DNA of 63,616 nucleotides, counting the filler. It is 6 parts of 6 records of this genome, joined end to end, with 100 filler letters (N's around TTAATTAATTAA, not from the genome) between each part and the next. Parts side by side here need not be neighbours in the genome. Positions count along the whole stretch, not along the records: positions 30,924 to 48,738 come from DRR723986_5065; 5 more parts are not named here. One strand, written 5' to 3'. This document shows, piece by piece, positions 31,154 to 55,279 of the stretch (positions are counted from its first letter, which is position 1; every line of letters starts with the position of its first letter). The position numbers and the translations under genes were made by a program. The notes beneath the pieces are model-generated. The model did no database searches, was not told the origin of the DNA, and was given only the letters and a program-made list of their open reading frames with translations.

Positions 31154-31173
31154 ATTTGTTGAAAAAATGCGCC

Positions 31174-31605
31174 TTAGAATATCCCGAGCTGGTCGCGGGC
31201 ATCTTCGCTCATCATATCCTGCGTCCACGGCGGATCCATGACGACTTTAATGTCTACTTCAGCGACTCCGTCCATCGCCTCGACAACTTGACGTGAATTG
31301 GAGACCAGTTGCGGGCCGGCCGGGCACATGGGACTGGTCATTGTCATTTCGACGTGGACGTCCTTCTTTTTGCTATCCGCTTCGTTTTCCTTCAGGTCAA
31401 CGACGTAAATCAGACCTAGGTCCACGATGTTCACGTAAAGTTCCGGGTCGATAACCTGCTTGAGCTGCTCCCGCACCGAATCCTCACAGAGCGTCTTCAG
31501 CGGTGGCTGAGCGTCACCGGCAGACGCCGCCGAAGCATCGCTGGTTGCTTCGGCTGGCTGGTTAGGCGTTTCAGCGTTTTCTGGATTTGGCGTAGATTCC
31601 GACAT
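31174..31605 (-). CDS. metal-sulfur cluster assembly factor (SufT/PaaD, DUF59)
   Basis: LKQVIDPELYVNIVDLGLIY, MTMTSPMCPAG, PPWT..MMSEDAR..LG. Confidence 0.92.
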   Translation of the reverse strand: MSESTPNPENAETPNQPAEATSDASAASAGDAQPPLKTLCEDSVREQLKQVIDPELYVNIVDLGLIYVVDLKENEADSKKKDVHVEMTMTSPMCPAGPQLVSNSRQVVEAMDGVAEVDIKVVMDPPWTQDMMSEDARDQLGIF

Positions 31606-31793
31606 CGTTTACAGCTCCTCGGAGTAATGCCCGTTGGGGCGTAATGGATCAAATGGCAGGAATGCGGTAACCCGAAAGCTTGCATTAATTGCCGTAGGGA
31701 ACACCACACTGCTTAAAGTATATTGCCGAATGCAACTGGCGAGTAGGCATTTTGCCACTAGCAGTAAAACTGTCGTGAGTGAAAGGGATTTCC

Positions 31794-33119: not shown

Positions 33120-33167
33120 GCCAAGCTGTGTCCCGCCGTTTCGACCCTCGACAACTGATAGCTGAAA

Positions 33168-33689
33168 ATGGAAGAGCCCGAAGTACTGTTCACGGCGGAA
33201 CGTTTTCGCGTTGAACGCGTCCGCAAGCAGATGCCTGACGGTGAAGAGTTTTCCCGGGCAATTGTTCGACATCCAGGAGCGGTGGTGATCCTGCCTATCC
33301 TAAGCGACGGCCGAATCTGCCTAATCAAGAATGACCGTATCGCAGTTGGCAAGACGCTCATCGAATTGCCCGCAGGAACACGCGAACCGGAAGAGCAACC
33401 CATTGTTACGGCCAAGCGCGAGCTTGCCGAAGAGACTGGGTATCAGTGCAGCGAGATTGCACCACTTTGCCAGTTCTATATGTCGCCTGGAATCTTGGAT
33501 GAGCACATGCATGTGTTCGTCGCAAAGGGCCTCAAGCTGGGGGATCCTTCCAGGGAATTCGGTGAGCAAATCGAGAATTATCCAGCTACGCTCGATGAGA
33601 TCGATACACTGATCAAGAACGGGGATTTAGTTGACGCGAAATCGATCACGGCGATCCTATACTATCTTCGATTCGTCCATGGAAAATAA
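33168..33689 (+). CDS. Nudix hydrolase (ADP-ribose pyrophosphatase-like)
   Basis: VRHPGAV, ELPAGTREPEEQPIVTAKRELAEETG Nudix box, SPGILDE, DAKSI. Confidence 0.92.
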   Translation: MEEPEVLFTAERFRVERVRKQMPDGEEFSRAIVRHPGAVVILPILSDGRICLIKNDRIAVGKTLIELPAGTREPEEQPIVTAKRELAEETGYQCSEIAPLCQFYMSPGILDEHMHVFVAKGLKLGDPSREFGEQIENYPATLDEIDTLIKNGDLVDAKSITAILYYLRFVHGK

Positions 33690-34531
33690 TGGCCATGGAT
33701 GATGAAATCAGTCAAGGAACCGAGTGTTCTGGCCGCGCTGTGTTGGATTCAGCTACGCAGAGGCTTGCATCTGAGCGAACGCAGTTGTTAGTCAGCGTGA
33801 GGAGTCAGCAGGAGGCGGAGTTGGCCGCCACGGCGGGCGTCGATTGGATTGACGTCAAGGAGCCGGCTGCCGGAAGTTTGGGAGCTCCTAATTTGGAAGT
33901 TGCTCGCCAAGTCGCGGGTGGTCTCGTCCGTCAGAGCAGTAGCGTTGCATTGGGTGAGTTCAGCGAACTCATGGCTGCCGACGGTCAGCGGCGGATGGAA
34001 ATGCTCGACCGCGTGCAATCGCTGGTCGGCTTGTATCCCTACGCCAAGTTTGGATTGTCAAATCTTGCACCGGGATGGGAACGCGAATTCAGTAAGTTGG
34101 CAGGTAGCCTGGTAGAAGCTGCCAGCGGCGTTTCGCAACTTGGCACAGAGCAAGCGGCTTGTGTGCAAAGAATTGTTCCGGTTCTCTACGCGGACTTCAC
34201 AACCTGCATGGGAGCTACTCCCGAACAGGTATTAGAACAAGCGGACCGCATTGCTGCACGTTTTGTCCTGGTCGACACGTTCGTAAAGGATGGTCGGTCC
34301 TTGTTGGACTTTCAGCCAACAGAATTTCTCGCTGACTTTATGTCCGAGGCGCGTCGGCGTGGCTTGCGAATCGTGCTGGCGGGGAGCCTCAAGCCCCATC
34401 ATTTTGCCGCTTTGCTGCCGCTGGAGCCATTTGCGATTGGCGTCCGGGGAGCCGCCTGCCGGGCTGATCGCGATGGTGAACTGAGTCCCGAGAAGCTAAA
34501 GCAGCTTGTCGGTATGGCCCAATCGTGGTGA
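33689..34531 (+). CDS. mfnB: (5-formylfuran-3-yl)methyl phosphate synthase-like (MfnB/DUF556)
   Basis: LLVSVRS..EA..A..AGVDWIDVKEP..GSLGA, DTFVKDG..LLD, LAGSL, GVRGAAC. Confidence 0.8.
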   Translation: MAMDDEISQGTECSGRAVLDSATQRLASERTQLLVSVRSQQEAELAATAGVDWIDVKEPAAGSLGAPNLEVARQVAGGLVRQSSSVALGEFSELMAADGQRRMEMLDRVQSLVGLYPYAKFGLSNLAPGWEREFSKLAGSLVEAASGVSQLGTEQAACVQRIVPVLYADFTTCMGATPEQVLEQADRIAARFVLVDTFVKDGRSLLDFQPTEFLADFMSEARRRGLRIVLAGSLKPHHFAALLPLEPFAIGVRGAACRADRDGELSPEKLKQLVGMAQSW

Positions 34532-34831
34532 TTTAGCACGATCATTGCTGTTTAGGCGATGTTGAATGCAGAATTTGTCACCTTTTCTTGGGCATCGGCG
34601 GTACTCGAATCATACTGCTACGTTTACCTTTAAAGTTCCTACCTCAACAAACTAGTTGAACGAAGTCCGCACCGCCGGAATCCTTCCAATGGGGCTATGA
34701 GATTCGCACGCTGCCCTGGCGAAGGTCAGCGACTAGTCTGCCAGCCATAATGCCAGGGTCGTGCCGAGCGGTTGCGTTTCTCACGACCAATTCCCGCCTG
34801 TAATTCCTCATGCCAAAAGCGAGTCACTGTG

Positions 34832-36085
34832 GTGAATCGTCTGCTGATTGTATGCACTCTGTTCTGCGGTCTGTCGATCACTTCAGCCGTGGCGATCGGG
34901 CAGAGTTCTTTGTCGTTAGTTGAGACTGCGGTTGTCATTGAAAAGGACGTGCAAGCGTCGCGGCGAGTCGTCGGAAGTGTGCAGCCGTCGCGGGTGGCTA
35001 CGATCGGATCAGCGGCTGATGGGCGAATCGAAACGTTCTCTGCCAAAGTTGGGGCGGCCGTCTCGGCTGGAAAGCCCTTGGCCAAATTGCGAACTCAAAC
35101 GCTCGACATCGAGCGTGCTGCCGCTGCAGCCCAGTTGACGCTCTATGAACAACAGATGATCGAGCTGGAAAACGGTTCCAGGCCCGAGGAAATTGCCGAA
35201 GCGAAGGCCCAGGCAATGGCGTCCAAGGCGGCTATGGACAATGCGGCTCGACAACTGGAACGCGTCAAAGGCCTGGCCGCGGCCAATGCAGCGACCGACG
35301 CTGATGTCGAAGATGCACGTGAACGATCCGAAGCAACGCGATTCTCCTACGCTGCTGCAGCGGCAATGCTAGACCGCATCGAACAGGGGCCACGGGTTGA
35401 ACAGATTGCGCAAGCGGCAGCTCGAGTAGAACTGCAGACGCAGCAGGTTGCTTTGATTGACGACCGAAAACGCAAGCACACAATTGTTGCTCCCTTTGAC
35501 GGTTTTATCGCAGAGGAATTCACGCAAGTCGGTGCCTGGGTTAGCTCAGGGGATCCGATCGCAACCATCATCGAGCTGAAGCAGGTCGAAGTGCGTGCAC
35601 CAGCTTCATCCGGGGTGGCCTTGGGTCTGAAGATTGGTCAAGAAGTACGGATCGAGTTTCCTGAGATGCCGCAGCGGTTGATGACCGGCGTTGTGCAGAG
35701 AATCGTGCCGCGGGCAGAGGGAACTGCACGAGTGTTTCCGGTTGTTATATCACTAGAGAATGAAATCCGTGACGGCACTCCATTGTTGCTTTCCGGGATG
35801 CTTGCCAGAGTTCACTTGCCCGATGGTCCGAGTCGAAAAAGAGTTGTTGTACCGAAAGACGCCCTTGTCCTGAGTGCTCGTTCAAAGAGTGTTTTTGTAG
35901 TCGCCGTTGATGAAAAGGGCGTCGGACGAGCACGAAAGGTGACCGTCCAGCTTGGGCTGGCCATAGATGGGAATATTGCAGTGGAAGGCGACTTGCAGCC
36001 TGGCGATCTTGTCGTGGTCGAAGGAAATGAGCGCTTGGTCGATGGCCAAGAGGTCGAAGTGGCCAATCTGAATGCCGGAAGTTAG
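34832..36085 (+). CDS. RND efflux periplasmic adaptor subunit
   Basis: Signal peptide, biotinyl-lipoyl halves, long hairpin with LENGSRPEEI/EQGPRVEQI, IVAPFDG, VVPKDAL, VVEGNERL; start uncertain. Confidence 0.9.
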   Translation: MNRLLIVCTLFCGLSITSAVAIGQSSLSLVETAVVIEKDVQASRRVVGSVQPSRVATIGSAADGRIETFSAKVGAAVSAGKPLAKLRTQTLDIERAAAAAQLTLYEQQMIELENGSRPEEIAEAKAQAMASKAAMDNAARQLERVKGLAAANAATDADVEDARERSEATRFSYAAAAAMLDRIEQGPRVEQIAQAAARVELQTQQVALIDDRKRKHTIVAPFDGFIAEEFTQVGAWVSSGDPIATIIELKQVEVRAPASSGVALGLKIGQEVRIEFPEMPQRLMTGVVQRIVPRAEGTARVFPVVISLENEIRDGTPLLLSGMLARVHLPDGPSRKRVVVPKDALVLSARSKSVFVVAVDEKGVGRARKVTVQLGLAIDGNIAVEGDLQPGDLVVVEGNERLVDGQEVEVANLNAGS

Positions 36086-36173
36086 GCCCATCAAGAGACA
36101 CTTCTTGTTGTCAATCTTACTAGTTTCAATTCCGGCGTTTCAACGTCGACTGTACACCTGCGGGTAAGTCCAA

Positions 36174-39100
36174 ATGTTTGACTGGTTTATCAAGAATCCT
36201 GTCAAAGTCTCCGTCGGTGTTCTTATCGTCGGGCTCTTTGGTGCCATTGCTCTGGTCACGATGCCGAAGCAGTTGATTCCAGCCGTCGAGAATCCCGTCA
36301 TTTCCGTACGAACGACTTGGCCCGGCGCAAGTCCACAGGAAATTGAAAGGGAAATTGTTCAAGAGCAGGAAGAACAACTGGCTGCGGTCGAGGGTATGTT
36401 GAAGATGACTTCGACATGCAGCAACGGTTCGGCGTCGATTGTGTTGGAGTTTGCCGTTGGTACGCAGATTTCTGACGCCATGATGCGGGTAAACACTCGA
36501 TTGCAGCAAGTCCGCGAGTATCCAGCCAGCGCGCAAGAACCTGTCATTGAGGCGTCTGACGTCGCGGATAGCCCGATCGCTCGGTTCGCATTGACTGCTC
36601 GGCCGCCAAGTGTTGAAGATATTGAAGCGTACCAGGCGAAACATCCGGATCAACGTGAGATCCTTGAGCCCGCTCGTAAAGCCGCCAATTCTGCTCTGCG
36701 AGTATTCCGTCTACAGGAATTGGTCGATCTGAATTCCGATAAATTTCCAGAGATGAAGGAGCTTTTGCCTCCTGACGTTGACCTACAGGAAGTTCGCAAG
36801 CTTTCGGAGGACTTGATTGAGCCCCAGCTTGAACGCGTGCCCGGCGTTGCCGAGGCGGATACTTATGGCGGCCAAGAGGAAGAGCTGCAGGTTATCGTCG
36901 ATCCGGAATTGCTGGCTGCCAGGCAATTGACGATCGCAGATGTACGAACCGCACTCGCCGGGCAGAACAAGAATACTTCCGGAGGGGATCTTTGGGAGAG
37001 TAAGCGTCGCTACGTTATTCGCACGATTGGGCAATTCAGTTCGCCCGAGCAAGTCGAAGCGCAATTGCTTTACAGCGATGGAGAGTCGTCGGTCTACGTA
37101 GGTGACGTCGCAACCGTCCGGCAGTCGTACAAGAAAGTTGACAGTCTATCGCGGCGTTACGGACTGACCAGCAACGGGCTCAGCGTTCGTCGCGCGTCCA
37201 ACGCGAATGTACTAGAAGTGATGGACGGAGTGAAGGCAAAGGTCGAAGCGCTGAACAACGGAATGCTCCGTAGGCTTGGGTTGGAGCTGTATCAATACTA
37301 CGACGAAACCGAGTACATTCGCGCATCCATTTCGTTGGTCCAGCAGAATATCTTCGTCGGTGGGGCACTGACGATTATCGTGTTGCTGCTGTTCTTGCAC
37401 TTCGGTCGCAAGACCTTGTTGGCCATTCCGCTGATTGCTGGAAGCGCGGTTGCGTCCGTCTTTGTGTCGCCCTGGTTCTTCCTGGTGACAATCTGTCTGA
37501 CCTTGGTCGCCGGAATGTGGTTTGGTCGTGGTGCACTGGTCGTCGGATTTGCAATTCCGGTTAGCATCGTCGGCACATTTTTACTCATGGCGTTAATGGG
37601 GCGCAGTCTCAACGTCATCAGTCTCGCCGGCCTTGCATTCGCAGTTGGAATGCTTGTTGATAATGCGGTTGTGGTTCTGGAGAACATCTTCCGGCATCGG
37701 GAGGCTGGCGAATCTTCGCAGTACGCTGCCTCGCACGGAACGGCCGAAGTTGCCGGAGCTGTGCTTGCGAGCACGTTGACAACGATTGCAGTTTTCTTGC
37801 CAGTGTTGTTCGTGCAAGAGACTTCGGGGCAATTGTTGCGTGACATTGCCATTGCTGTGAGCTGCGCCGTTGGTCTTTCGTTGATCGTCTCCTTCACGAT
37901 GATTCCTGCCGCCGCCGCAAGATTGTTTAGGCATCAATCCCATTCCGGGAGTCCTTCCACTAGTGGTTCAAGCCGGTTGGATGGCGGAGAGCACGAAGGG
38001 AAGGCGAAGGGCGTTGCCGGAGCTTTTGCGGATCGAGTCGGCAGAGCCAATACTTGGTTGTTTGCTAGGAGAAGTCGCAGCTTAGTGTTCGTTGCTCTGA
38101 TGTTGGCGTTTACTTTCGGTGTGAGTTATTGGTTTTGGCCGAAAGTCGAATACTTGCCCAGCGGCAACCGAAACTTTGTGTTTTGCAGCCTGTCACCTCC
38201 TCCAGGTTATAACATCGAGAAGCTTATGGAGATGGGAGAGCTGTTGGAACGCGACACACGACCTTACTGGGACGTTGATGAGGACCCGTTAGCCACTGCC
38301 GACCTAGACTATCCGCCGATCGACTACTATTTCTACGCAGTGCGAGGATCTAGCGTCTTTATGGGGTTTCGCGCCGCCGATGAATCGCGTGTGCGGGAAC
38401 TGATTCCCATGGTCAAGGATGTAGCAAAGCAACTTAAGGGGACGCGGGCAATCGTCAAACAATCCAGTTTGTTTGAACGCGGTCTGACCGGCGGCAGGAC
38501 CATCGATATTGAGATTACCGGAGGTGACCTGAACAAGCTAATCGATATCGGACGTCGTGTGATGAATGATGTCGCGCGGATCATTCCGGACGCTCAGGCC
38601 TCGCCGCGTCCAAGCCTAGATTTGTCATCGCCGGAAATTCACATTATCCCGAAGCCCTACGAAGCGATGGAGATGGGTGTTTCGGCTCAGGATCTTGGCT
38701 ATGTGGTCGATGCGCTTGTCGACGGCGCGTACGCGGGCGACTACTTCGTCGATGGTGACAAAATTGATTTAACGATCATTGGCGAAGAGGGGTTCGCGCG
38801 GCGGACTCAAGACATCGAAGAGTTGCCAATTTCAACGGCGAGCGGGCAATTGGTGCCACTTTCGGCTGTCGCAAACGTGACACCATCCAGTGGCCCCGAG
38901 TCAATCATGCGTCGTGAGCGTTCGCGGGCGATTACGATTTCGGTGACCCCACCGCTGGAATTGCCCCTTGAAGAGGCGATGCTGCGGATCGACGAAGAGA
39001 TCATTGGCAAGCTTCAGAGTGAGGGAGTTCTGGACGGCGAGACAATGATTAGTCTTTCCGGTACCGCCGACAAGCTCCGCCAGGCCTGGGATGCTCTGCG

Positions 39101-39674
39101 ATGGAACTTAGTGCTTGCTCTTGCGATTACCTATCTATTGATGGCTGCTCTGTTCGAGTCATGGTTGTACCCTTTGGTGATCATCTTTACCGTACCGCTG
39201 GGAGCCGTGGGGGGGATTCTAGGTCTCTGGCTGCTCAATCAGTTTGTGCTCCAGTCGCTCGACGTGATTACCATGTTGGGTTTCGTGATCTTGATTGGCA
39301 CAGTCGTGAACAATGCGATTTTGATCGTCCACCAGTCGTTGAACTATATCCGAGCTGGGATGCCCAGCCGTGAGGCAGTTCCGCAGAGTGTGAAGACCCG
39401 CATTCGACCCATCTTCATAACGACGACAACGACCGTATTGGGCCTACTGCCACTGGTTCTGTTTCCAGGAGCTGGGAGCGAGCTTTACCGCGGCCTTGGA
39501 GCGGTAGTGCTCGGTGGGCTAGTGCTTTCGACCGCCTTTACTCTGTTCCTGGTTCCCGCCGTCTTTATTTTGACTATGGACGCCAGCGAGGCAATCATGA
39601 AGCTCTTTCGCCTGCGAGACCGGGATGATTCGGAGCAAGTCGTTGCTGCGCCCGAAGCCACTGCGGCTCCATAG
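36174..39674 (+). CDS. AcrB/AcrD/AcrF-family RND permease
   Basis: WPGASPQEIE, GMLVDNAVVVLEN, ASTLTT.AVFLP, GTVVNNAIL, R.RPI, GSELYR. Confidence 0.95.
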   Translation: MFDWFIKNPVKVSVGVLIVGLFGAIALVTMPKQLIPAVENPVISVRTTWPGASPQEIEREIVQEQEEQLAAVEGMLKMTSTCSNGSASIVLEFAVGTQISDAMMRVNTRLQQVREYPASAQEPVIEASDVADSPIARFALTARPPSVEDIEAYQAKHPDQREILEPARKAANSALRVFRLQELVDLNSDKFPEMKELLPPDVDLQEVRKLSEDLIEPQLERVPGVAEADTYGGQEEELQVIVDPELLAARQLTIADVRTALAGQNKNTSGGDLWESKRRYVIRTIGQFSSPEQVEAQLLYSDGESSVYVGDVATVRQSYKKVDSLSRRYGLTSNGLSVRRASNANVLEVMDGVKAKVEALNNGMLRRLGLELYQYYDETEYIRASISLVQQNIFVGGALTIIVLLLFLHFGRKTLLAIPLIAGSAVASVFVSPWFFLVTICLTLVAGMWFGRGALVVGFAIPVSIVGTFLLMALMGRSLNVISLAGLAFAVGMLVDNAVVVLENIFRHREAGESSQYAASHGTAEVAGAVLASTLTTIAVFLPVLFVQETSGQLLRDIAIAVSCAVGLSLIVSFTMIPAAAARLFRHQSHSGSPSTSGSSRLDGGEHEGKAKGVAGAFADRVGRANTWLFARRSRSLVFVALMLAFTFGVSYWFWPKVEYLPSGNRNFVFCSLSPPPGYNIEKLMEMGELLERDTRPYWDVDEDPLATADLDYPPIDYYFYAVRGSSVFMGFRAADESRVRELIPMVKDVAKQLKGTRAIVKQSSLFERGLTGGRTIDIEITGGDLNKLIDIGRRVMNDVARIIPDAQASPRPSLDLSSPEIHIIPKPYEAMEMGVSAQDLGYVVDALVDGAYAGDYFVDGDKIDLTIIGEEGFARRTQDIEELPISTASGQLVPLSAVANVTPSSGPESIMRRERSRAITISVTPPLELPLEEAMLRIDEEIIGKLQSEGVLDGETMISLSGTADKLRQAWDALRWNLVLALAITYLLMAALFESWLYPLVIIFTVPLGAVGGILGLWLLNQFVLQSLDVITMLGFVILIGTVVNNAILIVHQSLNYIRAGMPSREAVPQSVKTRIRPIFITTTTTVLGLLPLVLFPGAGSELYRGLGAVVLGGLVLSTAFTLFLVPAVFILTMDASEAIMKLFRLRDRDDSEQVVAAPEATAAP

Positions 39675-39675
39675 G

Positions 39676-40740
39676 CTATTGGGGGATTTGGGCGATTTCG
39701 CCACCGCCTCGAGTCGAAAGTGCTCGCCAAGTTGCCAGATCAAGGTTCTCCGAGACTGAGTGAACAGAGCCATCAGAGAGCGTAACGTTGACCACGCCAG
39801 TATGGTAGCTGCGTGAAGTGATCATGGCGTACGTTGGTGAGCCTTGGGCTCCATTTTTCCCCTCTTGCCACGAGTTGTAATCCATGAATCGGTGCAGCGT
39901 GTCGCCAACGGTGTAATGGACTTCGGCATTTGGAGGCATTGCAGTGGTGATGCCTGTGTGATGGACGCGACCGTCTGGCCATTCTGTGTGACCGGTAATC
40001 TTGAACTGGCCTCCGCTGGCCACGATGGCTTCTGCTTCGGCCCGATTGCTAGGGATGTTCGTTGACGATGGTCCACCGTTTCGTTCATAAGGCGTCCAGG
40101 CCCGAACTTCGCCAGCGAGCAGCGTGTGACTAAGGCCATCGGTAATGGCTCCCAGACGCATAAAGGAGTTTGGGTAGAAGACGCCTTCGCCGCCGCGCCG
40201 CGTCTGTGGGTCGTAGACGAAGTAACGCCCCATGTTGAATCCGTAGCAAGTAGGATGCAGAAGTGGTCGGTTGTTGCCGGGATCTCGAACTTCGGTTGCC
40301 CTGGGATCGCTTGGGCAGGAGTAAGTCGGAATCTTCAGGTCTGAGATAACCATCTGCCCATCCCATCCAATATTCAGATTGACTTGGTTGTACAGATTCC
40401 CTTGTTCCAAGAATGGCAGGATCCGCCCGTGGACTCCCCAAGAGCCGTTGTTGGCAGTGTTCCCAAGTCGAAAATCTATCACCGTTGATGGTGGGAGCCG
40501 CTTGTGTGTGCTCTCGTAGTTCAGGCACGCTAGTGAAAGTTGCTTCATGTTGTTCTGGCAACTCATCCTTCTCGCAGCCTCTCGAGCTGCTTGCACTGCC
40601 GGGAGCAGTAGGCCAACCAGAATGCCAATAATTGCAATCACGACCAACAACTCAACAAGCGTAAATCCCCGCGTTTTGAACGTTGTCGAATTGGTTTTAA
40701 AGTTGCGTGTTTCACCAGAATCGGAGAGTGCCGCAGGCAT
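39676..40740 (-). CDS. DUF1559 prepilin-like protein (planctomycete signature family)
   Basis: GFTLVELLVVIAIIGILVGLLLPAVQAAREAARR..C.NN.KQ, YSCPSD, ITDGLSHT, H-X9-DG motif (HTGVVNVTLSDG). Confidence 0.95.
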   Translation of the reverse strand: MPAALSDSGETRNFKTNSTTFKTRGFTLVELLVVIAIIGILVGLLLPAVQAAREAARRMSCQNNMKQLSLACLNYESTHKRLPPSTVIDFRLGNTANNGSWGVHGRILPFLEQGNLYNQVNLNIGWDGQMVISDLKIPTYSCPSDPRATEVRDPGNNRPLLHPTCYGFNMGRYFVYDPQTRRGGEGVFYPNSFMRLGAITDGLSHTLLAGEVRAWTPYERNGGPSSTNIPSNRAEAEAIVASGGQFKITGHTEWPDGRVHHTGITTAMPPNAEVHYTVGDTLHRFMDYNSWQEGKNGAQGSPTYAMITSRSYHTGVVNVTLSDGSVHSVSENLDLATWRALSTRGGGEIAQIPQ

Positions 40741-40824
40741 GGAGTGCTCTTCTTGTGTGAACGGGTCGTATGGTTCGAGGCGGCATTCGTAAGGAAAGCC
40801 GTGCATCAGATTCAACCTGCTGCC

Positions 40825-40840
40825 GCAAACCGTATGCCGA
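40825..40840 (-). promoter_or_regulatory. sigma54 -24/-12 promoter for the DUF1559 gene
   Basis: Minus strand TCGGCATACGGTTTGC = GG-N10-GC, about 85 nt upstream of the ATG. Confidence 0.7.
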
Positions 40841-41000
40841 AACAGGTTAGCAATAGCGGCTGCATCAACAAGCCTCAGAATCCAGTTCGGATTCCTTGTG
40901 CTGGCTCGGATAACTATGAGCGTTGGGTTCTAAATCCTTAGCGAGAAATTTCGTGCCCCACCACCAGACGGGAGAACGATCGGTACCAAGATTGCATCCA

Positions 41001-41039
41001 GTGGTGGATGGTCCACCGATGGTGGTGAAAAAGCCACCG
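41001..41039. promoter_or_regulatory. tandem candidate enhancer (UAS) sites
   Basis: GTGGTG-N6-CCACCG twice (41001-41018, 41022-41039), 21-bp period, each containing palindromic GGTG-N7-CACC. Confidence 0.6.
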
Positions 41040-41138
41040 TCGGTTCGAAGTAGCCTTGATCGAACGAAACTCAGCAATTCTATTCGCGCTAAATCTAAAG
41101 TGTCGAACCGTCTGCCAAATAAGTGTGATTCGCCTGAG

Positions 41139-42593
41139 ATGTCGTTGCAATACTCGCGTTTCGCTTCGCTAAGATGGAAGCTCCTTCTGCCAATCCTTGC
41201 GTCGGCCATCGTCATTGCGACGCTGGTTGCAGTGTTTTCGTTTCTTGTCGGCCGACATCGTGCGCTGTCAGAACTTGATCAGCGGCGGGCTGCGGTTGAA
41301 CGGACAATATTGTCAGCAAGTTTTCCGCTGACCGCTCCAGTTGCGAAAGCCATTGCAACACTGGCAGATGTCGAACTGGTTGTTCTGAACGCCGATTATG
41401 AACTGGATTCGTCGACGCTTCCGGTGGATCCGACTTCAACCCGGCTTTTCGGGGCGGTCAAGAATGCTGACGGCACCACTAGCGCTTCCGGTATCCAGGC
41501 CGCCGGTGAAACGGTCATCGACGGAGAAGAGTATCTGGTCTGGCTGTTGGATCGGAAGTCCCTGCCCTCAGATCAAAACAGCGGGCAGCATGTTGTACTG
41601 CTTTTCGAAAAGTCCGCTGTAACCGATGCAAGTCTGCGTGCTGCGACTTGGCCGCTCATCACAGGGCTAACGATTACGGCCTTGTTGAGCACGGTGGTCC
41701 TGTTGAGTACATCGCGTTTGGCGAGACGGATTCGTGACCTGCAGCAATGCGTACGAAAGGTTGCGCTTGGCAATTTCGATGAAGGTGTGAAGGATCTCTC
41801 GCCCGACGAATTGGGCCGCCTTGGACAAGATGTCAATGCAATGGGCGGCCAGTTGCAGAGTCTCTGGGCAACGGTCCAGCGCGAGGAGAGTACTCGTTTG
41901 CTTCACCAATTGTCAGCCGGCATGGCTCATCAGCTTCGCAATACGCTCACTGGTGCAAGACTTGCTCTTGAGCTCTATGTAAGCGAATTGACTGGTGGTC
42001 AAAAAACGGGTGCGGCGACATCGATGCAGCCCGAAGAGCTGGTTGTCGTTGACCGAGAGCTGACTCGTGCGGAAGAATTTGTGCGGCGTTTGCTGATGGT
42101 CGGTGCTGGGGAGCAGAGGATCGAAGATCGCCCGGCGTGCATTGCTGATTGTTTGAGTGACCTCAAGTCCAGCCACGACATCGTGGCGGACCACTTGTCG
42201 GTTGAAATGACGTGGAGCTTGCCGGCGAATTCCGCGTTCTATCAAGTGGCCGATGGAGGAACACTGGTGGCTGCCATTTCGAATCTGATCCTCAACGCAA
42301 TCGATGCTGGGACGAACGTTCGGGTTCAAGGCAGTCTGCAGGATGCAACGCTCACGATCGACGTCTCCGATGACGGGCCTGGGATATTGGATGAAGTCAA
42401 AGAGAATCTCTTTCAACCGCTTGTCACATCTAAGCCAGAAGGACTGGGGCTGGGGCTGGCCCTCGTGCAGCGCGCTGCAGAAAAACTCCATGGCGGAGTA
42501 TCATGGAATCGCAGGGAAGGAATAACCACGTTTTCCATTAATTTCCCCGTTCAACCTCTCAAAAGTGACAGTGATGGCGCGAGCAACATCTAA
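41139..42593 (+). CDS. HAMP-containing sensor histidine kinase
   Basis: Two TMs, HAMP (DELGRLG..VNAM), H-box AHQLRNTL, NLILNA, DDGPG, GLGLGL. Confidence 0.93.
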   Translation: MSLQYSRFASLRWKLLLPILASAIVIATLVAVFSFLVGRHRALSELDQRRAAVERTILSASFPLTAPVAKAIATLADVELVVLNADYELDSSTLPVDPTSTRLFGAVKNADGTTSASGIQAAGETVIDGEEYLVWLLDRKSLPSDQNSGQHVVLLFEKSAVTDASLRAATWPLITGLTITALLSTVVLLSTSRLARRIRDLQQCVRKVALGNFDEGVKDLSPDELGRLGQDVNAMGGQLQSLWATVQREESTRLLHQLSAGMAHQLRNTLTGARLALELYVSELTGGQKTGAATSMQPEELVVVDRELTRAEEFVRRLLMVGAGEQRIEDRPACIADCLSDLKSSHDIVADHLSVEMTWSLPANSAFYQVADGGTLVAAISNLILNAIDAGTNVRVQGSLQDATLTIDVSDDGPGILDEVKENLFQPLVTSKPEGLGLGLALVQRAAEKLHGGVSWNRREGITTFSINFPVQPLKSDSDGASNI

Positions 42594-42645
42594 GAGCTAT
42601 AACGTGTCGAAGAATCGAGATGTGCATGTCAGCCAAGGAAGCGTG

Positions 42646-44073
42646 ATGGCAAGTGTGTTAGTTGTTGATGACGAACCGGCAATTTGTTGGGCCATCCGGC
42701 GGGCGCTCGAGAAAATGGGCTACTCCGTTGCCACCGCATCGTCCGCAGAGGAGGGGCTGGAAATTGCGCGAACCGATGTGCCAGCACTGGTGTTTCTTGA
42801 TGTCCGCTTGCCAAAGGAAGACGGCCTAACCTCCCTTCCGAAGTTCTTGGATACCACACAGGGTGCGCCGGTCGTAATCATGACCGCCTTTGGTGATCTC
42901 GCCACTGCAGTTCTTGCCGTTGAACGCGGGGCAGCAGATTACGTTACGAAGCCGTTTAAGTTGGAGGACATTGAGGCGGCCTGTAAAGCTCACCTTAGCC
43001 GCCGCGCTGATCCAGAACCCACCGATCAGCAGCGCCAGCGATCGGCTAAAAATGAAGACGATGGGCCTGACGCTGTTAGCAGGAAGCAGGAGCTTGTTGG
43101 GTGTTCCGCGGCAATGCAAAGCGTCTTCCGGCAGATCGCATTTTTTGCCAAGAGTGAATTGTCAGTACTGATCACTGGCGAGACAGGCACCGGGAAGGAG
43201 CTCGTCGCCGCTGCCATCCATCGCCATAGCAGTCGTTGTGATCAGCCGTATCTAGCGGTTGCTCCGGTAGCGATGAACCCAGACTTGATCGAGAGTGAGC
43301 TTTTCGGGCATGTACGCGGCGCTTTTACAGGAGCTGAGTCGGATCGCGTGGGATTGTTCGAAGCTGCCGAGGGAGGAACGATTCTGCTAGATGAGATCGG
43401 CGACTTGCCACCTGCTTTGCAAGCAAAGCTATTGCGCGTACTTGAAGCTGGAGAGTATTGCCGAGTTGGTGAGGTCGCACCGCGGAATTGTGATGTCCGA
43501 GTACTCGCTGCAACCAGTTGCGATCTGCAGGGGGCGATCGCTGACGGGCGGTTCAGAGAAGATCTGTTTTATCGAATCAACGGAATGCACATCCACTTGC
43601 CGCCGTTGCGACATCGCCCCGATGATTTCCGACCTCTATGCGAGTATTTCTTAGGCGAAGTGGATGCCAATCAAGGTGGCAAGATCGATGAGCAATTGCT
43701 AGCGGAACTGGCGAAGCGACACTGGCCGGGGAACATCCGAGAACTTCGAAACGCTGTTCGCCATGCCGCCGTGCTGGCGAGGGGGCGTGCCATGCAGGTG
43801 CAAGATTTTCCCGTCGCAGCAACCCTTGGAGACCATCAAGACGCAGGAGAGGATGCTGCGGTCGAGCAGTTTGTGTGGCAGTGGGCAAAGCGGTATGCAG
43901 ATGAGAGCCAGGATGGCGGTGATCTGCTCGGCGCGTTTATGGCGGCGACCGAACCGGCTCTGATGAAATTTGCAATTGAATCTTGTGGTGGCAATCGTGC
44001 TCGTGCCGCCGAGTTGCTTGGAATCCACCGCGGTACACTGCGCGATCGATTGCGCAGCTATGGCATTGAATGA
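42646..44073 (+). CDS. sigma54-dependent (NtrC-family) response regulator
   Basis: Receiver VVDDE/LDVRLP, GETGTGKE, GAFTGA, DEIGD, FREDLFYR, WPGNIREL, C-terminal Fis HTH. Confidence 0.95.
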   Translation: MASVLVVDDEPAICWAIRRALEKMGYSVATASSAEEGLEIARTDVPALVFLDVRLPKEDGLTSLPKFLDTTQGAPVVIMTAFGDLATAVLAVERGAADYVTKPFKLEDIEAACKAHLSRRADPEPTDQQRQRSAKNEDDGPDAVSRKQELVGCSAAMQSVFRQIAFFAKSELSVLITGETGTGKELVAAAIHRHSSRCDQPYLAVAPVAMNPDLIESELFGHVRGAFTGAESDRVGLFEAAEGGTILLDEIGDLPPALQAKLLRVLEAGEYCRVGEVAPRNCDVRVLAATSCDLQGAIADGRFREDLFYRINGMHIHLPPLRHRPDDFRPLCEYFLGEVDANQGGKIDEQLLAELAKRHWPGNIRELRNAVRHAAVLARGRAMQVQDFPVAATLGDHQDAGEDAAVEQFVWQWAKRYADESQDGGDLLGAFMAATEPALMKFAIESCGGNRARAAELLGIHRGTLRDRLRSYGIE

Positions 44074-44383
44074 CGTCGCGAGTTACTTAAGGGCACAAAA
44101 AGAGCATAAGTGTAGTACACTGTCGCAGAGTGCTCGGTGAGATCATTTTCCGAGCTTCGCAATCGAAGGCGGTCCTGCGGAGCGTGTTGCGGAAGCGGGC
44201 GCTTCTCGCCGTTCACACCACCGGGGCGAAGCTCTTAGGCCCGAGAATCGGTGTTGGTGAAAAATATTTTGCAAGAATTTTGACGCCGTTTCATCGCCTG
44301 AAAAATAGCGCTATGGCGGCTCGAAATACTACGTTGCAATGACTTGAAAAATCCAAGTTGCGGTTCAGCGAAAAGTAGCAACT

Positions 44384-44417
44384 TGTTACAATCGTGAACC
44401 GCATTGCAAGCTTTACA
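44384..44417 (+). promoter_or_regulatory. candidate extended -10 promoter and conserved downstream box, module copy 1
   Basis: TGTTACAAT...CGCATTGCAAGCTTTACAC, matched by 46547-46580. Confidence 0.45.
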
Positions 44418-44571
44418 CTGCAGTCCATCTACGCCCATGGGTTGCTGATTGAACGGGTTGAATACCGCTTGGGCGAACCGCATCGTTGGGTGGTGGCCAG
44501 CCCCACCTCCGGCTGATTGCGTGCTTCTGTGCAACACGGTGTAGGTTGAGGGTGCTCTCCATTACCTCGGT

Positions 44572-44613
44572 GCGCACCCAGCGCACGCTGAGCGCACGCC
44601 GTCTCCAGCGCAT
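44572..44613 (+). repeat. short direct repeats GCGCA(C/T) upstream of ORF A1
   Basis: GCGCAC at 44572, 44581, 44592 and GCGCAT at 44608. Confidence 0.55.
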
Positions 44614-44675
44614 CGCCCGGAGCGGAATTGACGTTTCAAAATGCAGTCCAGGAATTTCACCAGGAACGGCAAACG

Positions 44676-45338
44676 ATGTCTGACAAAAGTATCCGAATCG
44701 ACAACCCCGCGCACGCTCGGTCCAGCGATGTTGCTTACCCTGCTACTCCTGATGCTCGCAATTATGCCCGTTTGTCGTACAAGAACAAACGCTATCATCT
44801 AGGCAAGTACGACTCTCCGGAGAGCTATGCGACCTATGCCATCTGGAGGGCAACGATTGACCGTACGGGGGAGGCGCCAGAGCTAGCAACGATACGTAGC
44901 CATGTGCAAGCATTTCTCGCTAACGAGCCAGCTAAACAACCCGTTTACACTCGAAAGTGGTTTGCCGGATCGCTCATCGTTTCCGCCTTTCTAGTTGCTT
45001 TTAGTATCGTTTCGGCGTCTCAAATAATCTCAAGTCGAAGTCACGCCAAAGTCGATGGCATCGCAATGTCTGAAAATGAGATTCTGCAGGTCCGCAACAC
45101 GCGTGCTTACTTTGACAAGCAAGCCGCGAGACGCGCATCGCCAGAATCAGTAGCTACAAGAGCTTTGTTGCTCAAGAAGTTGGAGCTTGAAGGCAGTGCG
45201 AGTTTACCAATACCCGAGATTCCCGAAGACATCCGTCACTTTGCTAAGCCGGCATTTCCTGATCTTCCCAGCCGGGATGTTAGTCGGAATGCTTCTGGTG
45301 GCTACGCAGGGGAAGGCGGAAGCGACGCGATCAATTGA
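44676..45338 (+). CDS. ORF A1: hypothetical membrane protein with integrase-arm-like N-terminus
   Basis: 220 aa from ATG 44676; YARLSYKNKRYHLGKYDSPESY; TM after KWFAG; about 49% identical to 46826-47476 by manual alignment. Confidence 0.85.
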   Translation: MSDKSIRIDNPAHARSSDVAYPATPDARNYARLSYKNKRYHLGKYDSPESYATYAIWRATIDRTGEAPELATIRSHVQAFLANEPAKQPVYTRKWFAGSLIVSAFLVAFSIVSASQIISSRSHAKVDGIAMSENEILQVRNTRAYFDKQAARRASPESVATRALLLKKLELEGSASLPIPEIPEDIRHFAKPAFPDLPSRDVSRNASGGYAGEGGSDAIN

Positions 45339-45618
45339 ACCTTCTCCGGCATCAATTGAGCATGCTGTGTCACTGATTGCACCGGAGTTAATCGCGCCGG
45401 ATATGCTAGCACCGACAGACGATCCATGTGCAGCCGAGAGACTGGCTTATGCAAATGCCTACGCTGATTATCTCGACGCACTTCAAGCGGCCCATGCGGC
45501 GTTGTTGGCACTTGAAGTATGCGAATTTGTTGCCAATCCAGAAGAGCCTGAAGACGAAGAAGCCGCTTCTGCGCGGCTAGAGCAATTGGCTTCGATGAAG
45601 TCCGTGCTTGTAAGATAG
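45241..45618 (+). CDS. ORF B1: small exported helical protein with C-x30-C
   Basis: Paralog of 47364-47720; hydrophobic signal-like segment ending AEA; start uncertain (TTG 45241 is conserved in both copies). Confidence 0.75.
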   Translation: MLSRHFLIFPAGMLVGMLLVATQGKAEATRSIEPSPASIEHAVSLIAPELIAPDMLAPTDDPCAAERLAYANAYADYLDALQAAHAALLALEVCEFVANPEEPEDEEAASARLEQLASMKSVLVR

Positions 45619-45633
45619 TACTTTGGTGCAACA

Positions 45634-45695
45634 GCGTGGGCAGCCGTAAACAGCTATGGGGCTAATCATGGTGTGCGGCTGCCCACGCCTTCTTT
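45634..45695 (+). terminator. conserved long hairpin after ORF B1
   Basis: GCGTGGGCAGCCG (45634-45646) pairs with CGGCTGCCCACGC (45676-45688); inner stem; followed by CTTCTTT. Confidence 0.6.
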
Positions 45696-46546
45696 GTTGC
45701 CTGAATTGTGCTCAGTCCTGGGACTCCCTCTCATTCGGCGACGCACACCCGCCTACTTTACTAATCTTTCATCGTGCCGGTCCGACTTCATGCGACATGC
45801 ATGGGTGCTGATGCCGTTACTCTTGCTGGCATCAGGTGCGGCGACCGGCATCAGTGCGTGCTTCTCGGACACGTAACAGCGCCCCGTGGTTATCCATCGA
45901 TCGAGGATTCCTGCACGCATACGCTAGTGAGCGAACTCGCTGGGGTGCGGTAGCATTGGAGCATCAGGATCCCACTGTTAGGCCCGAAGCAGTCATTCGA
46001 GTACTTGGCGTCGAGTGAGCTCTGCCTGATGCCCCCTGCACTGAGGAGTAAACCTCGTTGTGGTTGAGCCTGCGTTGGTTCGTTTGGATTGACAGACTCG
46101 TCGCCCTCACGTCGAGACCCGGGCATGAAGCTGGAGGCCCAGGGAGTGGAGCTGTCGAGCGACCCGCACGGGGCATCTGTGCCGCATCGAGAGTGGATTC
46201 GGCCTTGGTGAGTCATCCAGGATCCGGTTTCGTCGTCAGCGCAGCCGCTAGATGCCAGACCGCCCAGAGGAGATGCCTGAAATCTGAGTCGGTTTAGCCA
46301 GGCGATTTGACTCTGCAGTCACACATCGCCGTTGGCAATTACGGCACGTGGAACCTCATCTATGGGGTGCTCCTACCCCCTCAGTTCGGAGAGAAGCACG
46401 CCAGGCAATGGACTGACGCTCAAAAAAAATCTGATCAATTTTGGCTGACTAAGAGCAGCTGGTTGGCACCGCTGAGGTGCCCAAAATCTGAGTCGCCATC
46501 TAGACCGATCAAATTGCGCACGGTCCTCCAAAGGCTAATTGCTAGC

Positions 46547-46580
46547 TGCTACAATGATCGTCGCTTTGCAAGCATAACAC
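46547..46580 (+). promoter_or_regulatory. candidate extended -10 promoter and conserved downstream box, module copy 2
   Basis: TGCTACAAT...CGCTTTGCAAGCATAACAC; similar distance to ATG as in copy 1. Confidence 0.45.
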
Positions 46581-46709
46581 CGAAGTTCACCACGGCACGT
46601 TCGCAAGTCGCGGGCATCAGCGGTTTGTCGTCGCTGCCACGCAGGTTGCTGGGGCAGTTCGTGAGTTTCATCGCTTGAAAATGCGCGAACCTGCACAGCG
46701 CCCGCGTAT

Positions 46710-46746
46710 TCGCCAGCTTTCGCCACCCATTCGCCAGGTGTCGCCA
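46710..46746 (+). repeat. four helically phased TCGCCA direct repeats upstream of ORF A2
   Basis: TCGCCA at 46710, 46720, 46731, 46741 (spacing 10, 11, 10). Confidence 0.7.
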
Positions 46747-46825
46747 GCAGGCTCGCGGACCAAACAAAACTAAGGCGCAGGACGTTGTTCCGGCTGGGCA
46801 ATGAACCACTGAGGCTTCACCACTG

Positions 46826-47476
46826 ATGGATAATGCTAACATTCGCGTTGACTCCCCCTCTGCACGCCTGTCCTATCCGAGTGAGCGAGACAAGAAGGGG
46901 TATGCTCGTCTCTCCTTGAAAAGCAAACGCTATCATTTCGGACGATACGGTACACCGGAGAGCTATGCGACCTTCGCCCTATGGAGTGCCGAACTGGCTA
47001 GGACGGGGGAGGCACCGGAGATTGCTAGTATTAAGCCACACGTCCGGGATTTCTTGTCTGGGCAGCCTTCCGGACAGCCGGCTTATACTAAGAAATGGTT
47101 CGCTGGAGGGCTCGTCTCGGCGGCTCTTGTTCTCGGATTGTGCGCAATTTTCGCAGGCTACTTAGCCTCAAGAATCAAGCCGCCCCAAGTCGATGGCATC
47201 GCAATGTCCCAAACTGAGATTTTGCGAATTCGCAATACACGCTTGGTCGACGCACAGAGAGATGCACGCCGTGCTTCCTTTGATGCAATCGCGACGAAAG
47301 CAGTGTTGCTCGAAAAATTGGAGCGCGAAGGCAGTGCCAGTTTACCGTTACCAAAGTTGCCAGATGACGTCCGTCGCCTTGCTAAGCCGCCGCTTCCTGA
47401 TGTTTCCAGCCGGAGTGGTCCTGGGGGCCTTCCTAGCGTTGACGATCCAGCAGGCGGCAGCTCGCAGCGTGAGTGA
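46826..47476 (+). CDS. ORF A2: paralog of ORF A1
   Basis: YARLSLKSKRYHFGRYGTPESY, RTGEAPE, KWFAG-TM, VDGIAMS..EIL..RNTR, ARRAS, EGSASLP shared with A1. Confidence 0.87.
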   Translation: MDNANIRVDSPSARLSYPSERDKKGYARLSLKSKRYHFGRYGTPESYATFALWSAELARTGEAPEIASIKPHVRDFLSGQPSGQPAYTKKWFAGGLVSAALVLGLCAIFAGYLASRIKPPQVDGIAMSQTEILRIRNTRLVDAQRDARRASFDAIATKAVLLEKLEREGSASLPLPKLPDDVRRLAKPPLPDVSSRSGPGGLPSVDDPAGGSSQRE

Positions 47477-47720
47477 GCCCGCGGTGGAGCTCGTTTCGCC
47501 CGAGTTGCTGACTCCGACGGAAGATCCCTGCGAAAGCGAACGGGAAGCTTACGCGAATGCATACAGTGACTATCTACTTGCCGTCCAAGCGGCTCAGGCT
47601 GCATTGGCAGTGCTTGAGAGCTGCGAGTTAGTCCACGATCCAGAAGAGCCCGAGGAGCCATTAGCCGCTAGGGCAAGAATCGACGATCTCGCTTCGATGC
47701 ACTCTGTGCTTCAGAGATAG
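47364..47720 (+). CDS. ORF B2: paralog of ORF B1
   Basis: MTSVALLSRRFLMFPAGVVLGAFLAL...AAA signal-like N-terminus; DPC..ER.AYANAY.DYL.A.QAA.AAL..LE.CE; LASM.SVL.R end. Confidence 0.8.
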   Translation: MTSVALLSRRFLMFPAGVVLGAFLALTIQQAAARSVSEPAVELVSPELLTPTEDPCESEREAYANAYSDYLLAVQAAQAALAVLESCELVHDPEEPEEPLAARARIDDLASMHSVLQR

Positions 47721-47735
47721 CATTACGATGCAACA

Positions 47736-47797
47736 GCGTGGGCAGCCGAGCATAGCTATGGGGCAATTCATGGTGTGCGACTGCCCACGCCTTTTCT
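47736..47797 (+). terminator. conserved long hairpin after ORF B2
   Basis: GCGTGGGCAG...CTGCCCACGC outer stem, GCATA/TGTGC, CTATGGG-GCAA-TTCATGG, followed by CTTTTCT. Confidence 0.6.
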
Positions 47798-48639
47798 ACT
47801 CGACGTAAAGAAGCTCGGGTTCGGCTGTAACATCCACCAAACACGCCCGAGTCGATGGACGCTACCATCGATGCCGAACCCGAGCCACCCTTTCTTTCGG
47901 CACAACAAGTGAAGGCACTTGATCGAACTTCCCTGTCGCTACGTTAGGTGCAGCCAAGTGTGTGGCTTGATCGCTTGGTTGCGTTTGGTAAAGCCCTTGT
48001 CCCACGTTGCTTATGCTTGCCTAACGTCATCTGGCGTCTGCCTGAACATCTGGGCAATCCCAATGCAGAATTTTCTGGCAGCACACAACGGCTTGCATGC
48101 GTTTATGGTTAGCGTGGGGGTGTCAAGACTTGGTCACGAGGGGACACTGGTGGCCGCTTCTCGAGAAACTTAATTCTTTCATGGCGAGGGTGTTTGGATT
48201 TCAGCCGGTCGGTTGGAGTTGTGAGCAGCTCATTTCTGGACGCGAGTTCGAATTGCGGGCGTTAGTACACGGGGGCTACGGGTAAAACTATGTGATCTTT
48301 GCGAGGCAGGATCCTTGCAACCTCAGAACCTGAAACCCAGCATCTTTGCTGCGTTCAGATGTCGTGCCAACGATACGGCTCTGAGGAGTCGATTCACTCG
48401 CTTAACCGTCACGGCTCGCGGCGCAAGCGGTTTGTGGGCTGAAGCTTGCTTTACCGCCTAGTAACCATTTTCCGGGGTTCTCTGGATGGCAATGAGGTTT
48501 ACTTGTGCGGTCGTTGCACTTCCTCAACCAGCCCCCCGATTTAGCTGGGGCTCTTTGTTGCTGTTTATCCGTTGGGAGAGTATACTTCGCCAAACCCCTC
48601 AAGTGTCTGCCTTTCGCCCCCCTTCTTAGGCTGTCTCTG

Positions 48640-48738
48640 ATGCTTTTTCGCCTTGTACTAGGTTGCTTCCTGTCTTTAACGTCAGTCTCGCAATGCTCTG
48701 CTGACTTGATATTAACGCTAACGGATGCCGGAGCTGGC
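48640..48738 (+). CDS. 5' fragment of an exported protein (PEP-CTERM-like N-terminus)
   Basis: MLFRLVLGCFLSLTSVSQCSA-DLILTLTDAGAG, signal peptide; truncated by gap. Confidence 0.5.
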
Positions 48739-48838
48739 NNNNNNNNNNNNNNNNNNNNNNNNNNNNNNNNNNNNNNNNNNNNTTAATTAATTAANNNNNN
48801 NNNNNNNNNNNNNNNNNNNNNNNNNNNNNNNNNNNNNN
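48739..48838. other. artificial contig spacer 4
   Basis: 100-nt N-run with TTAATTAATTAA at 48783-48794. Confidence 0.99.
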
Positions 48839-55179: not shown

Positions 55180-55279
55180 NNNNNNNNNNNNNNNNNNNNN
55201 NNNNNNNNNNNNNNNNNNNNNNNTTAATTAATTAANNNNNNNNNNNNNNNNNNNNNNNNNNNNNNNNNNNNNNNNNNNN
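55180..55279. other. artificial contig spacer 5
   Basis: 100-nt N-run with TTAATTAATTAA at 55224-55235. Confidence 0.99.

Follow-up and report, generated by a model that had tools for sequence, protein, structure and literature searches.

A duplicated two-gene operon of Pirellulaceae, probably a previously undescribed kind of membrane-bound gene switch

We analysed a 63,616-nucleotide (nt) stretch of assembled DNA (the window), in which a 17.8-kb contig (DRR723986_5065, positions 30924-48738, ~54% GC) wholly contains two anciently duplicated, still-selected copies of a two-gene operon. The first gene encodes a protein that we call A (A1 and A2 in copies 1 and 2), predicted to cross the inner membrane once, and the second encodes a small, probably exported partner, B (B1 and B2). 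The pair probably represents a membrane-bound gene switch of a kind not described before. Our more specific and tentative reading is that A-B would be a co-component transmembrane regulator resembling ToxR/ToxS, in which an arm-binding domain of integrases has been exapted and the leader repeats serve as operators. Whatever its function, A-B is a well-defined, selected and uncharacterised two-gene family with clear motifs. Full-text literature searches gave no paper on the family (the supplementary tables of PMC10269533, which possibly list related proteins, were outside their scope). Coordinates are collected in Table 1.

The two copies share a single order of elements. A TGnTACAAT box is followed by a leader (283 nt in copy 1 and 270 nt in copy 2, from box to start codon), by A, by B overlapping A in the +1 frame, and by a hairpin ~15 nt after the B stop codon. 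This agrees throughout with a preliminary description made from the DNA letters alone, which had also put A at 220 and 216 amino acids (aa) with about 49% identity by manual alignment; we find those lengths and 51% identity over 200 aa (expectation value, E, 4e-77). B1 and B2 are 54% identical (E 8e-39). The sole close relative with a named record, a 1661-bp contig from the metagenome-assembled genome of an uncultured Pirellulaceae (locus L001), has the layout of the window copies element for element. Between copies 1 and 2, nucleotide identity is 88.9% in the hairpin, 65.4% in the A/B overlap, 55.8% in B, 55.5% in A, 46.5% in the upstream flank, 38% in the rest of the leader and 24.5% in the downstream flank; the higher value for the overlap fits a dual-coding constraint. 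The argument of the preliminary description that both copies are under selection was examined by Nei-Gojobori counts of the proportions of nonsynonymous (pN) and synonymous (pS) differences. These gave pN 0.326 and pS 0.743 for A1/A2, and pN 0.251 and pS 0.699 for B1/B2, with overall ranges of 0.20-0.35 for pN and 0.66-0.92 (saturated) for pS, and omega ~0.12-0.29 where computable. Because synonymous sites are saturated and pN is low, the duplication is old and both genes of both copies are under purifying selection.

The proteins belong to a family whose two genes travel together. A word-based search recovered only the A1 of the window plus two clusters at 63% identity. A profile search of 1.84 billion proteins returned 93 cluster representatives at E<=1e-3, 56 at E<=1e-10 and one at E<=1e-30; these are 87-269 aa long, bar one outlier of 924 aa, and most matches span the N-terminal domain (N-domain) and the transmembrane (TM) helix and reach into the outer domain. 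The A profile matched 8 of 401 genomes sampled at the level of the order (E<=1e-5; full-length in only 2) and 14 of 401 sampled Pirellulaceae genomes (E<=1e-8). Near-full-length A occurs as 14 copies in 11 Pirellulaceae genomes, three of which hold two copies at separate loci. As far as sampled, the operon is restricted to Pirellulaceae (Planctomycetota), and a metagenome scan with the A alignment gave 179 pattern matches and no relative. We examined linkage at 16 relatives' loci, one of which (L146) is cut by a contig end. A +1-frame B-like open reading frame (ORF) overlaps the A stop codon at 14 of the 15 evaluable loci (13 of 14 when the near-identical L140 and L141 are counted once), so that co-occurrence of A and B is near-obligate.

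An AlphaFold2 (AF2) model of A, computed with the family alignment, has a mean predicted local distance difference test score (pLDDT) of 84.7. It consists of two strands (residues 30-35 and 38-44), two helices (48-64 and 70-81), a 27-residue TM helix (93-119), a short strand pair, and two outer helices (133-154 and 156-172). The blocks of the TM helix have pLDDT values of 94-98, and no charged residue is present between W95 and I118. The single uncharged helix supports the earlier suggestion that A is membrane-anchored. On this model, A would be a single-pass (bitopic) inner-membrane protein, with its N-terminus probably inside and its C-terminal region outside. In an alignment of 60 A sequences, the N-domain carries the motif Y-P-x-x-P-D-x-R-G-x-A-R...R-R-x-Y-Y-F-G-x-H-x-S-P-x-S-Y-x-x-F-G-x-W-K...T-G-E-x-P, followed by the hydrophobic helix and then by V-D-G-x-x-L-S/T-x-x-E-x-x-x-x-R-G-x-R. 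The conserved N-domain residues form a basic beta-hairpin.

The absence of any characterised family, noted in the preliminary description, is borne out by database searches. A1 and A2 have no Pfam or NCBIfam match at E<=1, OmpR/PhoB-type winged helix included, and Pfam gave no meaningful match in any of 60 family members scanned, with no anti-sigma family at E<=1. The A family profile has no relative among PDB sequences. B likewise matches nothing in Pfam, NCBIfam or PDB sequences. Neither A, B nor two distant pairs matched a PADLOC model at E<=1, A and B have no PHROG match at E<0.1, and the ESM Atlas gave no usable match for A1 or B1. Surveys find transmembrane transcription regulators via Pfam DNA-binding domains (PMC10269533); a family without a Pfam domain, such as A, is invisible to surveys of this kind.

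One relationship does emerge from profile comparison. The N-terminal part of the A profile also matches 423-437-aa ORFs of other Pirellulales genomes (per-genome E 4.5e-7 to 2.6e-6). In three such ORFs (415-434 aa when begun at the first start codon), the C-terminal half matches Pfam Phage_integrase (E 7e-12 to 9e-14); a fourth integrase-like ORF (L137) is a 189-aa fragment with no Pfam match. When an A-only N-domain profile was aligned with the N-termini of these four ORFs, hhalign returned a probability of 97.5% and E 6.5e-12 over 53 columns. The A-like proteins of two genomes (G588 and G472) are intermediate, with N-domains nearer to those of the integrases. Judged by profile alignment, there is homology between the N-domain of A and the N-terminal module, the one in the arm-binding position, of tyrosine integrases of Pirellulales, and the integrase-arm-type domain proposed earlier is upheld in this sense. 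N-terminal arm-binding domains of integrases read accessory repeats (PMC8138268), and we assume from its position that the Pirellulales module binds arm sites as well. A differs from these enzymes in having no core-binding or catalytic domain, in being membrane-anchored and in being paired with an exported protein. The catalytic motif of tyrosine recombinases (R-K-H-R-H pentad and tyrosine nucleophile), which the preliminary description could not see, is indeed missing: there is no PF00589 match at E<=1, and the protein ends ~100 aa past the TM helix. A is not a recombinase.

Homology to integrases raises the alternative that A-B is a relic or accessory of an integrative element, in which A would be a membrane-anchored arm-site binder that modulates an integrase (directionality, immunity or superinfection exclusion), brought into genomes by such elements and at times left behind. 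We consider this improbable. Besides the homology itself and the intermediate N-domains of G588 and G472, it can draw on the patchy distribution, with one or two copies per genome, and on two local settings. In L001, a convergent ORF fragment (1351-1659, minus strand) ends 50 nt past the hairpin. It is truncated by the end of the contig; its sequence resembles the C-terminal part of a tyrosine recombinase (H-x-x-R, G-H, Y), with no Pfam match at E<=0.01. In genomes G699 and G648, A is preceded at a distance of 243 nt by a tRNA-Ser(CGA) gene (L140 921-1004; L141 1173-1256), with two 19-nt direct repeats in between, a classic integration-site setting with no integrase nearby. The wider neighbourhoods point the other way. 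A scan of 130 ORFs at the loci of 14 relatives showed no integrase, transposase, phage or extracytoplasmic function (ECF) sigma family within ~5.2 kb of A. The neighbours vary and include redoxins, sulfatases, tRNA synthetases and components of ABC and RND transport, among others. The preliminary description had listed an accessory module of an integrative element as its own alternative, which these loci support weakly at best. IMG/VR viral contigs gave 96 pattern matches to the close-family alignment and no relative, and the PHROG and PADLOC searches were likewise empty. A supposed integrase relic between the window copies was rejected (tblastn E 0.45, with an in-frame stop). Finally, synonymous divergence is saturated and purifying selection is strong, which speaks for a cellular function that has been kept for a long time.

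The fold of the N-domain may be of the AP2/arm type, an assignment that is marginal. Likeness to AP2/ERF domains (including phage HNH-AP2 proteins) lies in a beta-hairpin followed by a helix and in a K/R-x-x-Y-L-G-x-Y/H-x-S-x-E motif. The N-domain profile matches both AP2 repeats of WRI1 (PDB 7wq5_A) at their K..YLG.Y.S.E motif, marginally (whole-sequence E 0.0083) and over 16-20 residues only. Foldseek against BFVD placed a phage integrase first (E 0.063, probability 0.99, query TM-score 0.47), and 15 more of the top 50 matches were HNH/homing endonucleases or AP2/ERF-domain proteins, all with E >0.06. A differs from AP2/ERF domains in the weakness of these matches and in its third strand, which is not clearly modelled.

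Judging by its sequence, B appears to be small and exported, with a helical hairpin that carries the Cys pair and with a conserved S-V/I-L tail. In all 14 B-like ORFs, the N-terminus is hydrophobic and signal-like and a helical stretch of the form C-x-x-E-x-A-A-Y-A...C is conserved, and all but one (G705) end in an S-V/I-L-x-R/K tail. In a 15-row alignment, every row has both Cys and 14 have S-V/I-L, the remaining row being the G705 protein, which has a different C-terminal end. In B2 and in the B of L001, S-R-R-F-L stands just before the hydrophobic core and is followed by A-x-A-type cleavage motifs; B1 has S-R-H-F-L. S-R-R-F-L resembles the twin-arginine translocation (Tat) consensus. The signal-peptide-like N-terminus lends support to the exported partner envisaged earlier. 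The start of B1 was placed by alignment with B2 and the L001 protein, whose ATG lies just before S-R-R-F. The B profile finds 11 further unnamed proteins of 95-143 aa. As B overlaps A in the +1 frame, its translation is probably coupled to that of A. A complex prediction for A residues 118-205 with B residues 27-123, run without the alignments, scored 0.06 against a mark of 0.34, which speaks neither for nor against contact between the two.

An overlapping pair made of a membrane protein and an exported peptide could also be a small conflict system (toxin-antitoxin, abortive infection or another defence pair). The compact operon, its patchy occurrence, variable neighbourhood and divergent paralogs would all suit such a system. 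We regard it as very improbable: the PADLOC models matched none of the proteins searched, neighbours typical of defence islands are missing apart from one Uma2 family gene at one of 14 loci, and neither protein has an enzymatic or pore-like feature.

The architecture of A-B is closest in outline to that of ToxR/ToxS, TcpP/TcpH and VtrA/VtrC (PMC9214523, PMC7496328, PMC10269533). In these systems, as in the predicted A-B pair, the cytoplasmic N-terminal part of a bitopic protein is a domain of DNA-binding type, joined through one TM helix to an outer domain, and the next gene of the operon codes for a small partner that is exported or anchored. Such systems would be expected to bind direct repeats, and their cassettes evolve fast. 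The resemblance to ToxR/ToxS was part of the preliminary description, and the TM helix and the linkage of the two genes sustain it; the DNA-binding domain does not, for the N-domain of A is not an OmpR/PhoB winged helix. That domain was tested for and is absent, so A is not a member of the ToxR family. The outer domain of A is helical and the phylum is Planctomycetota, which are further differences from ToxR. ToxS and VtrC are lipocalin-like barrels; B is instead a ~90-aa helical protein that carries the Cys pair and ends in the S-V/I-L tail. The single-pass, N-in architecture and an outer sensing region are also found in bitopic anti-sigma factors that have periplasmic partners. Such factors differ from A in the two respects already given, namely the ECF sigma gene missing beside A at the 14 loci and the missing anti-sigma family among the 60 members.

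We next consider the DNA upstream of A. The boxes foreseen at this position in both copies are present, TGTTACAAT in copy 1 and TGCTACAAT in copy 2 and L001, and that of copy 1 is followed by a conserved TTGCAAGC..ACAC block. Their form suggests a putative promoter; a two-hexamer promoter scan, which needs a -35 element, reported none. A sigma-54 promoter, considered because an NtrC-type regulator is encoded upstream, was rejected: the three copies conserve TTGCA without a conserved GG at the right spacing. Each leader contains phased arrays of short direct repeats, bearing out an earlier observation, of GCGCAC type in copy 1 and TTCGCCA type in copy 2. Of the 15 TCGCCA on the plus strand of the 17.8-kb contig, 4 lie in these arrays, as do 3 of its 5 plus-strand GCGCAC (these statistics are post hoc). 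Measured from the start codon, the repeats of L001 (GCGCGA, GCGCAC and GCGCAC) stand at -104/-95/-84, exactly where those of copy 1 do. A1 and its L001 orthologue have an identical beta-hairpin sequence and the hairpin of A2 differs, so the repeat type tracks the paralog type in the three close copies (GCGCAC-type for A1 and L001, TTCGCCA for A2), in line with the earlier idea that each paralog recognises its own repeats.

Beyond the close copies, TTCACT is 13-fold and TTCACC 7-fold enriched in the 250 nt upstream of A across 15 loci, and TTCAC[CT] occurs there at 9 of them. There are seven TTCACT in G705, some of them spaced by 11 nt, and three TTCACTA in G663. A search of four genomes for further TTCACT clusters found, beyond the A locus, one in G705 that lies in a coding tandem repeat, and additionally two in G705 and one in G663. 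From their sequence and phasing, the leader repeats are candidate operator arrays, as would be expected for a membrane-tethered reader that approaches DNA from one side. Separately, each of the three close copies has an invariant TTCACCA (44655-44661 and 46815-46821 in the window; 315-321 in L001) that lies 10-20 nt ahead of the start codon of A and adjoins Shine-Dalgarno-like AGGA/GAGG; its core is the repeat unit found upstream of several distant family members.

The hairpin after B comprises a conserved 13-bp outer stem and an inner stem, with minimum free energies of -47.1 kcal/mol in copy 1 (z -5.5) and -33.1 kcal/mol in copy 2 (z -3.2). A terminator consensus scan lists 45670-45689 and 47772-47791, each with at least 5 T in the 8-base tail window. 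Other family members have strong hairpins of unrelated sequence after B, several with canonical T-runs, which makes a terminator the simplest reading. The hairpin is thus present and conserved as a part of the cassette, as the preliminary description had it, and is probably the terminator of the operon. An additional copy occurs in the genome of a relative (G001; locus L171, G001:C39, 750-1560). It is 60 nt long and 87% identical, has no A or B coding sequence before it, and shows one base pair changed on both sides (U-A to C-G, compensatory). It lies downstream of TTGCAAGC/TTGCTAGC boxes and of a 512-nt stretch that holds eight strand-specific TTCGCC, three of which are spaced 11 nt apart. 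The locus may be what is left of a decayed cassette, or it may give rise to a further target transcript. A metagenome scan with a 17-mer of the hairpin gave 120 loci, all of them chance matches of 17-20 nt, with the full element only in L001. We also compared the hairpin with attC sites of integrons, which are imperfect palindromes with R''/R' core sites (RYYYAAC ... GTTRRRY) in promoterless cassettes with IntI nearby. The right-side GTTGC is present only in copy 1 and is absent from copy 2 and L001, each copy has its own promoter-like box, and the contig contains no integrase; both the attC and the integron cassette identity were rejected.

These elements can be assembled into a mechanism, for which we infer the topology, the DNA binding, the A-B interaction, the promoter and which protein binds which repeats. 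A would regulate transcription from the membrane in the manner of the co-component systems ToxR/ToxS or VtrA/VtrC, with a cytoplasmic N-domain (~65 aa; basic beta-hairpin plus helices), one TM helix, and an outer helical domain starting V-D-G-x-x-L-S/T-x-x-E...R-G-x-R. B would bind or stabilise this outer domain and relay an envelope or periplasmic signal. The N-domain would read short direct repeats placed about one helical turn apart, such that all sites face the membrane, and would act on the repeats in its own leader (autoregulation) and presumably elsewhere too. The paralogs would have diverged in their hairpin residues together with the repeat sequence, and the 3' hairpin would end the operon transcript.

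Several results weigh against this mechanism. Foldseek against the PDB, with the full model and with the N-domain, gave nothing at E<=0.001 and AP2 entries only at E ~1.6-2.5; all AP2 and arm-fold signals are sub-significant or marginal, and the model has two clear strands in place of the three of AP2 or lambda Int N-domains. TTCAC[CT] is missing at 6 of the 15 loci, and arrays of at least three copies of a 6-7-mer, counting sequence-specific repeats, occur at only 4 of 14 non-redundant loci (the two window copies, G705 and G663). B is absent at one locus (L151, the second A copy of G685). The 3' hairpin is 87-89% conserved where synonymous sites are saturated, far above what a plain terminator needs. 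The family is patchy, present in ~3% of sampled Pirellulaceae at one or two copies per genome, and so A looks more like an accessory gene than a core regulator.

Some of these results suit an explanation in which A-B is an envelope or membrane complex and not a transcription factor. The N-domain would then bind protein or tether the nucleoid non-specifically, B would be a structural periplasmic subunit, and the complex might anchor DNA to the membrane, take part in envelope biogenesis or sense stress via another effector. Its anatomy would be identical to that of a regulator, and the marginal DNA-fold assignments, the many loci without repeat arrays and the diverse envelope and housekeeping genes nearby are all compatible with it. 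We nevertheless hold it to be unlikely. The N-domain shares homology with a module found at the place of the arm-site DNA reader of integrases, the conserved residues of the N-domain form a basic beta-hairpin, and strand-specific phased repeats stand upstream of A at a position kept between orthologues. The co-component regulator, tentative as it is, remains the reading that we prefer. A bolder version of it, which we find doubtful, would make A-B an unrecognised class of one-component membrane-tethered factors: an exapted AP2-like integrase arm domain with an obligate exported co-sensor, acting on paralog-specific hexamer/heptamer arrays one turn apart, with oligomers docking on one DNA face and the 60-nt hairpin marking further transcripts of the regulon.

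If A binds DNA, it would represent a new DNA-binding fold among membrane-bound regulators and would clearly exemplify how a domain from a mobile element can be exapted for signalling in the cell. Regulation in Planctomycetota is poorly known, and A-B would then provide this phylum with a compact, testable sensor-operator pair, with two paralogs and two repeat types on one contig.

Table 1. Features of the A-B operon copies and of their surroundings, in window coordinates
Feature	Position	Strand	Remarks
Extended -10-like box, copy 1 (TGTTACAAT)	44384-44392	+	Read directly; aligns with TGCTACAAT of copy 2 and L001
Leader 1 phased repeats, GCGCAC x3 + GCGCAT	44572-44613	+	At 44572, 44581, 44592, 44608; spacing 9, 11, 16
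A1, 220 aa	44676-45338	+	N-domain ~residues 20-85; TM helix 93-119; outer region with V-D-G-I-A-M-S motif and two helices
B1, ~125 aa if started at TTG 45241	45241-45618 (open from 45187)	+	+1 frame, overlaps A1 by ~98 nt; C-terminal S-V-L-V-R
Hairpin, copy 1	45634-45688 (arms 45634-45651/45671-45688)	+	Conserved 13-bp outer stem plus inner stem
Extended -10-like box, copy 2 (TGCTACAAT)	46547-46555	+	L001 also has TGCTACAAT
Leader 2 phased repeats, TTCGCCA x3 + GTCGCCA	46709-46746	+	At 46709, 46719, 46730, 46740; spacing 10, 11, 10
A2, 216 aa	46826-47476	+	Paralog of A1
B2, 118 aa from ATG 47364	47364-47720 (open from 47193)	+	+1 frame, overlaps A2 by ~113 nt; S-R-R-F-L-M-F signal region
Hairpin, copy 2	47736-47790	+	
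HAMP/HisKA histidine kinase	40923-42593		Directly upstream of copy 1
Sigma-54-dependent response regulator (NtrC-type)	42565-44073		29-nt overlap with kinase gene; directly upstream of copy 1
4-HFC-P synthase	33689-34531		Contig 30924-48738
NUDIX gene			Contig 30924-48738
HlyD/AcrB efflux pair			Contig 30924-48738
DUF1559 plus N-methylation-motif protein			Contig 30924-48738
Linkers (TTAATTAATTAA flanked by paired 44-N runs)	9911-10010, 23508-23607, 30824-30923, 48739-48838, 55180-55279		Joints between contigs

The window is composed of six contigs joined by N44-TTAATTAATTAA-N44 linkers. GC content jumps at every joint, within a range of 47-67%, and no feature is readable across the joints. 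No tRNA gene was found in the window, and Rfam gave 0 matches at E<=1 over 44000-48700. Public contigs from two studies (X1 and X2) match both copies of the operon at 95-99% identity; among the short DNA contigs of X1-X4, no single public record bridges copy 1 and copy 2. Contigs of runs X4 and X1 fuse copy 1 to copy 2 at homologous positions (44888/47186 and 46556/44404), which could reflect confusion of the paralogs by the assembler or a relative with one hybrid copy, and loose ends in X4 match L001-type sequence. The 4-HFC-P synthase gene lies ~10 kb from A in the window and ~1.3-1.7 kb from A in two relatives, G509 and G415 (L154 9922-10779; L156 9646-10485), where it stands beside an RNase D-like gene. 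This proximity may be a trace of common ancestry of the three loci.

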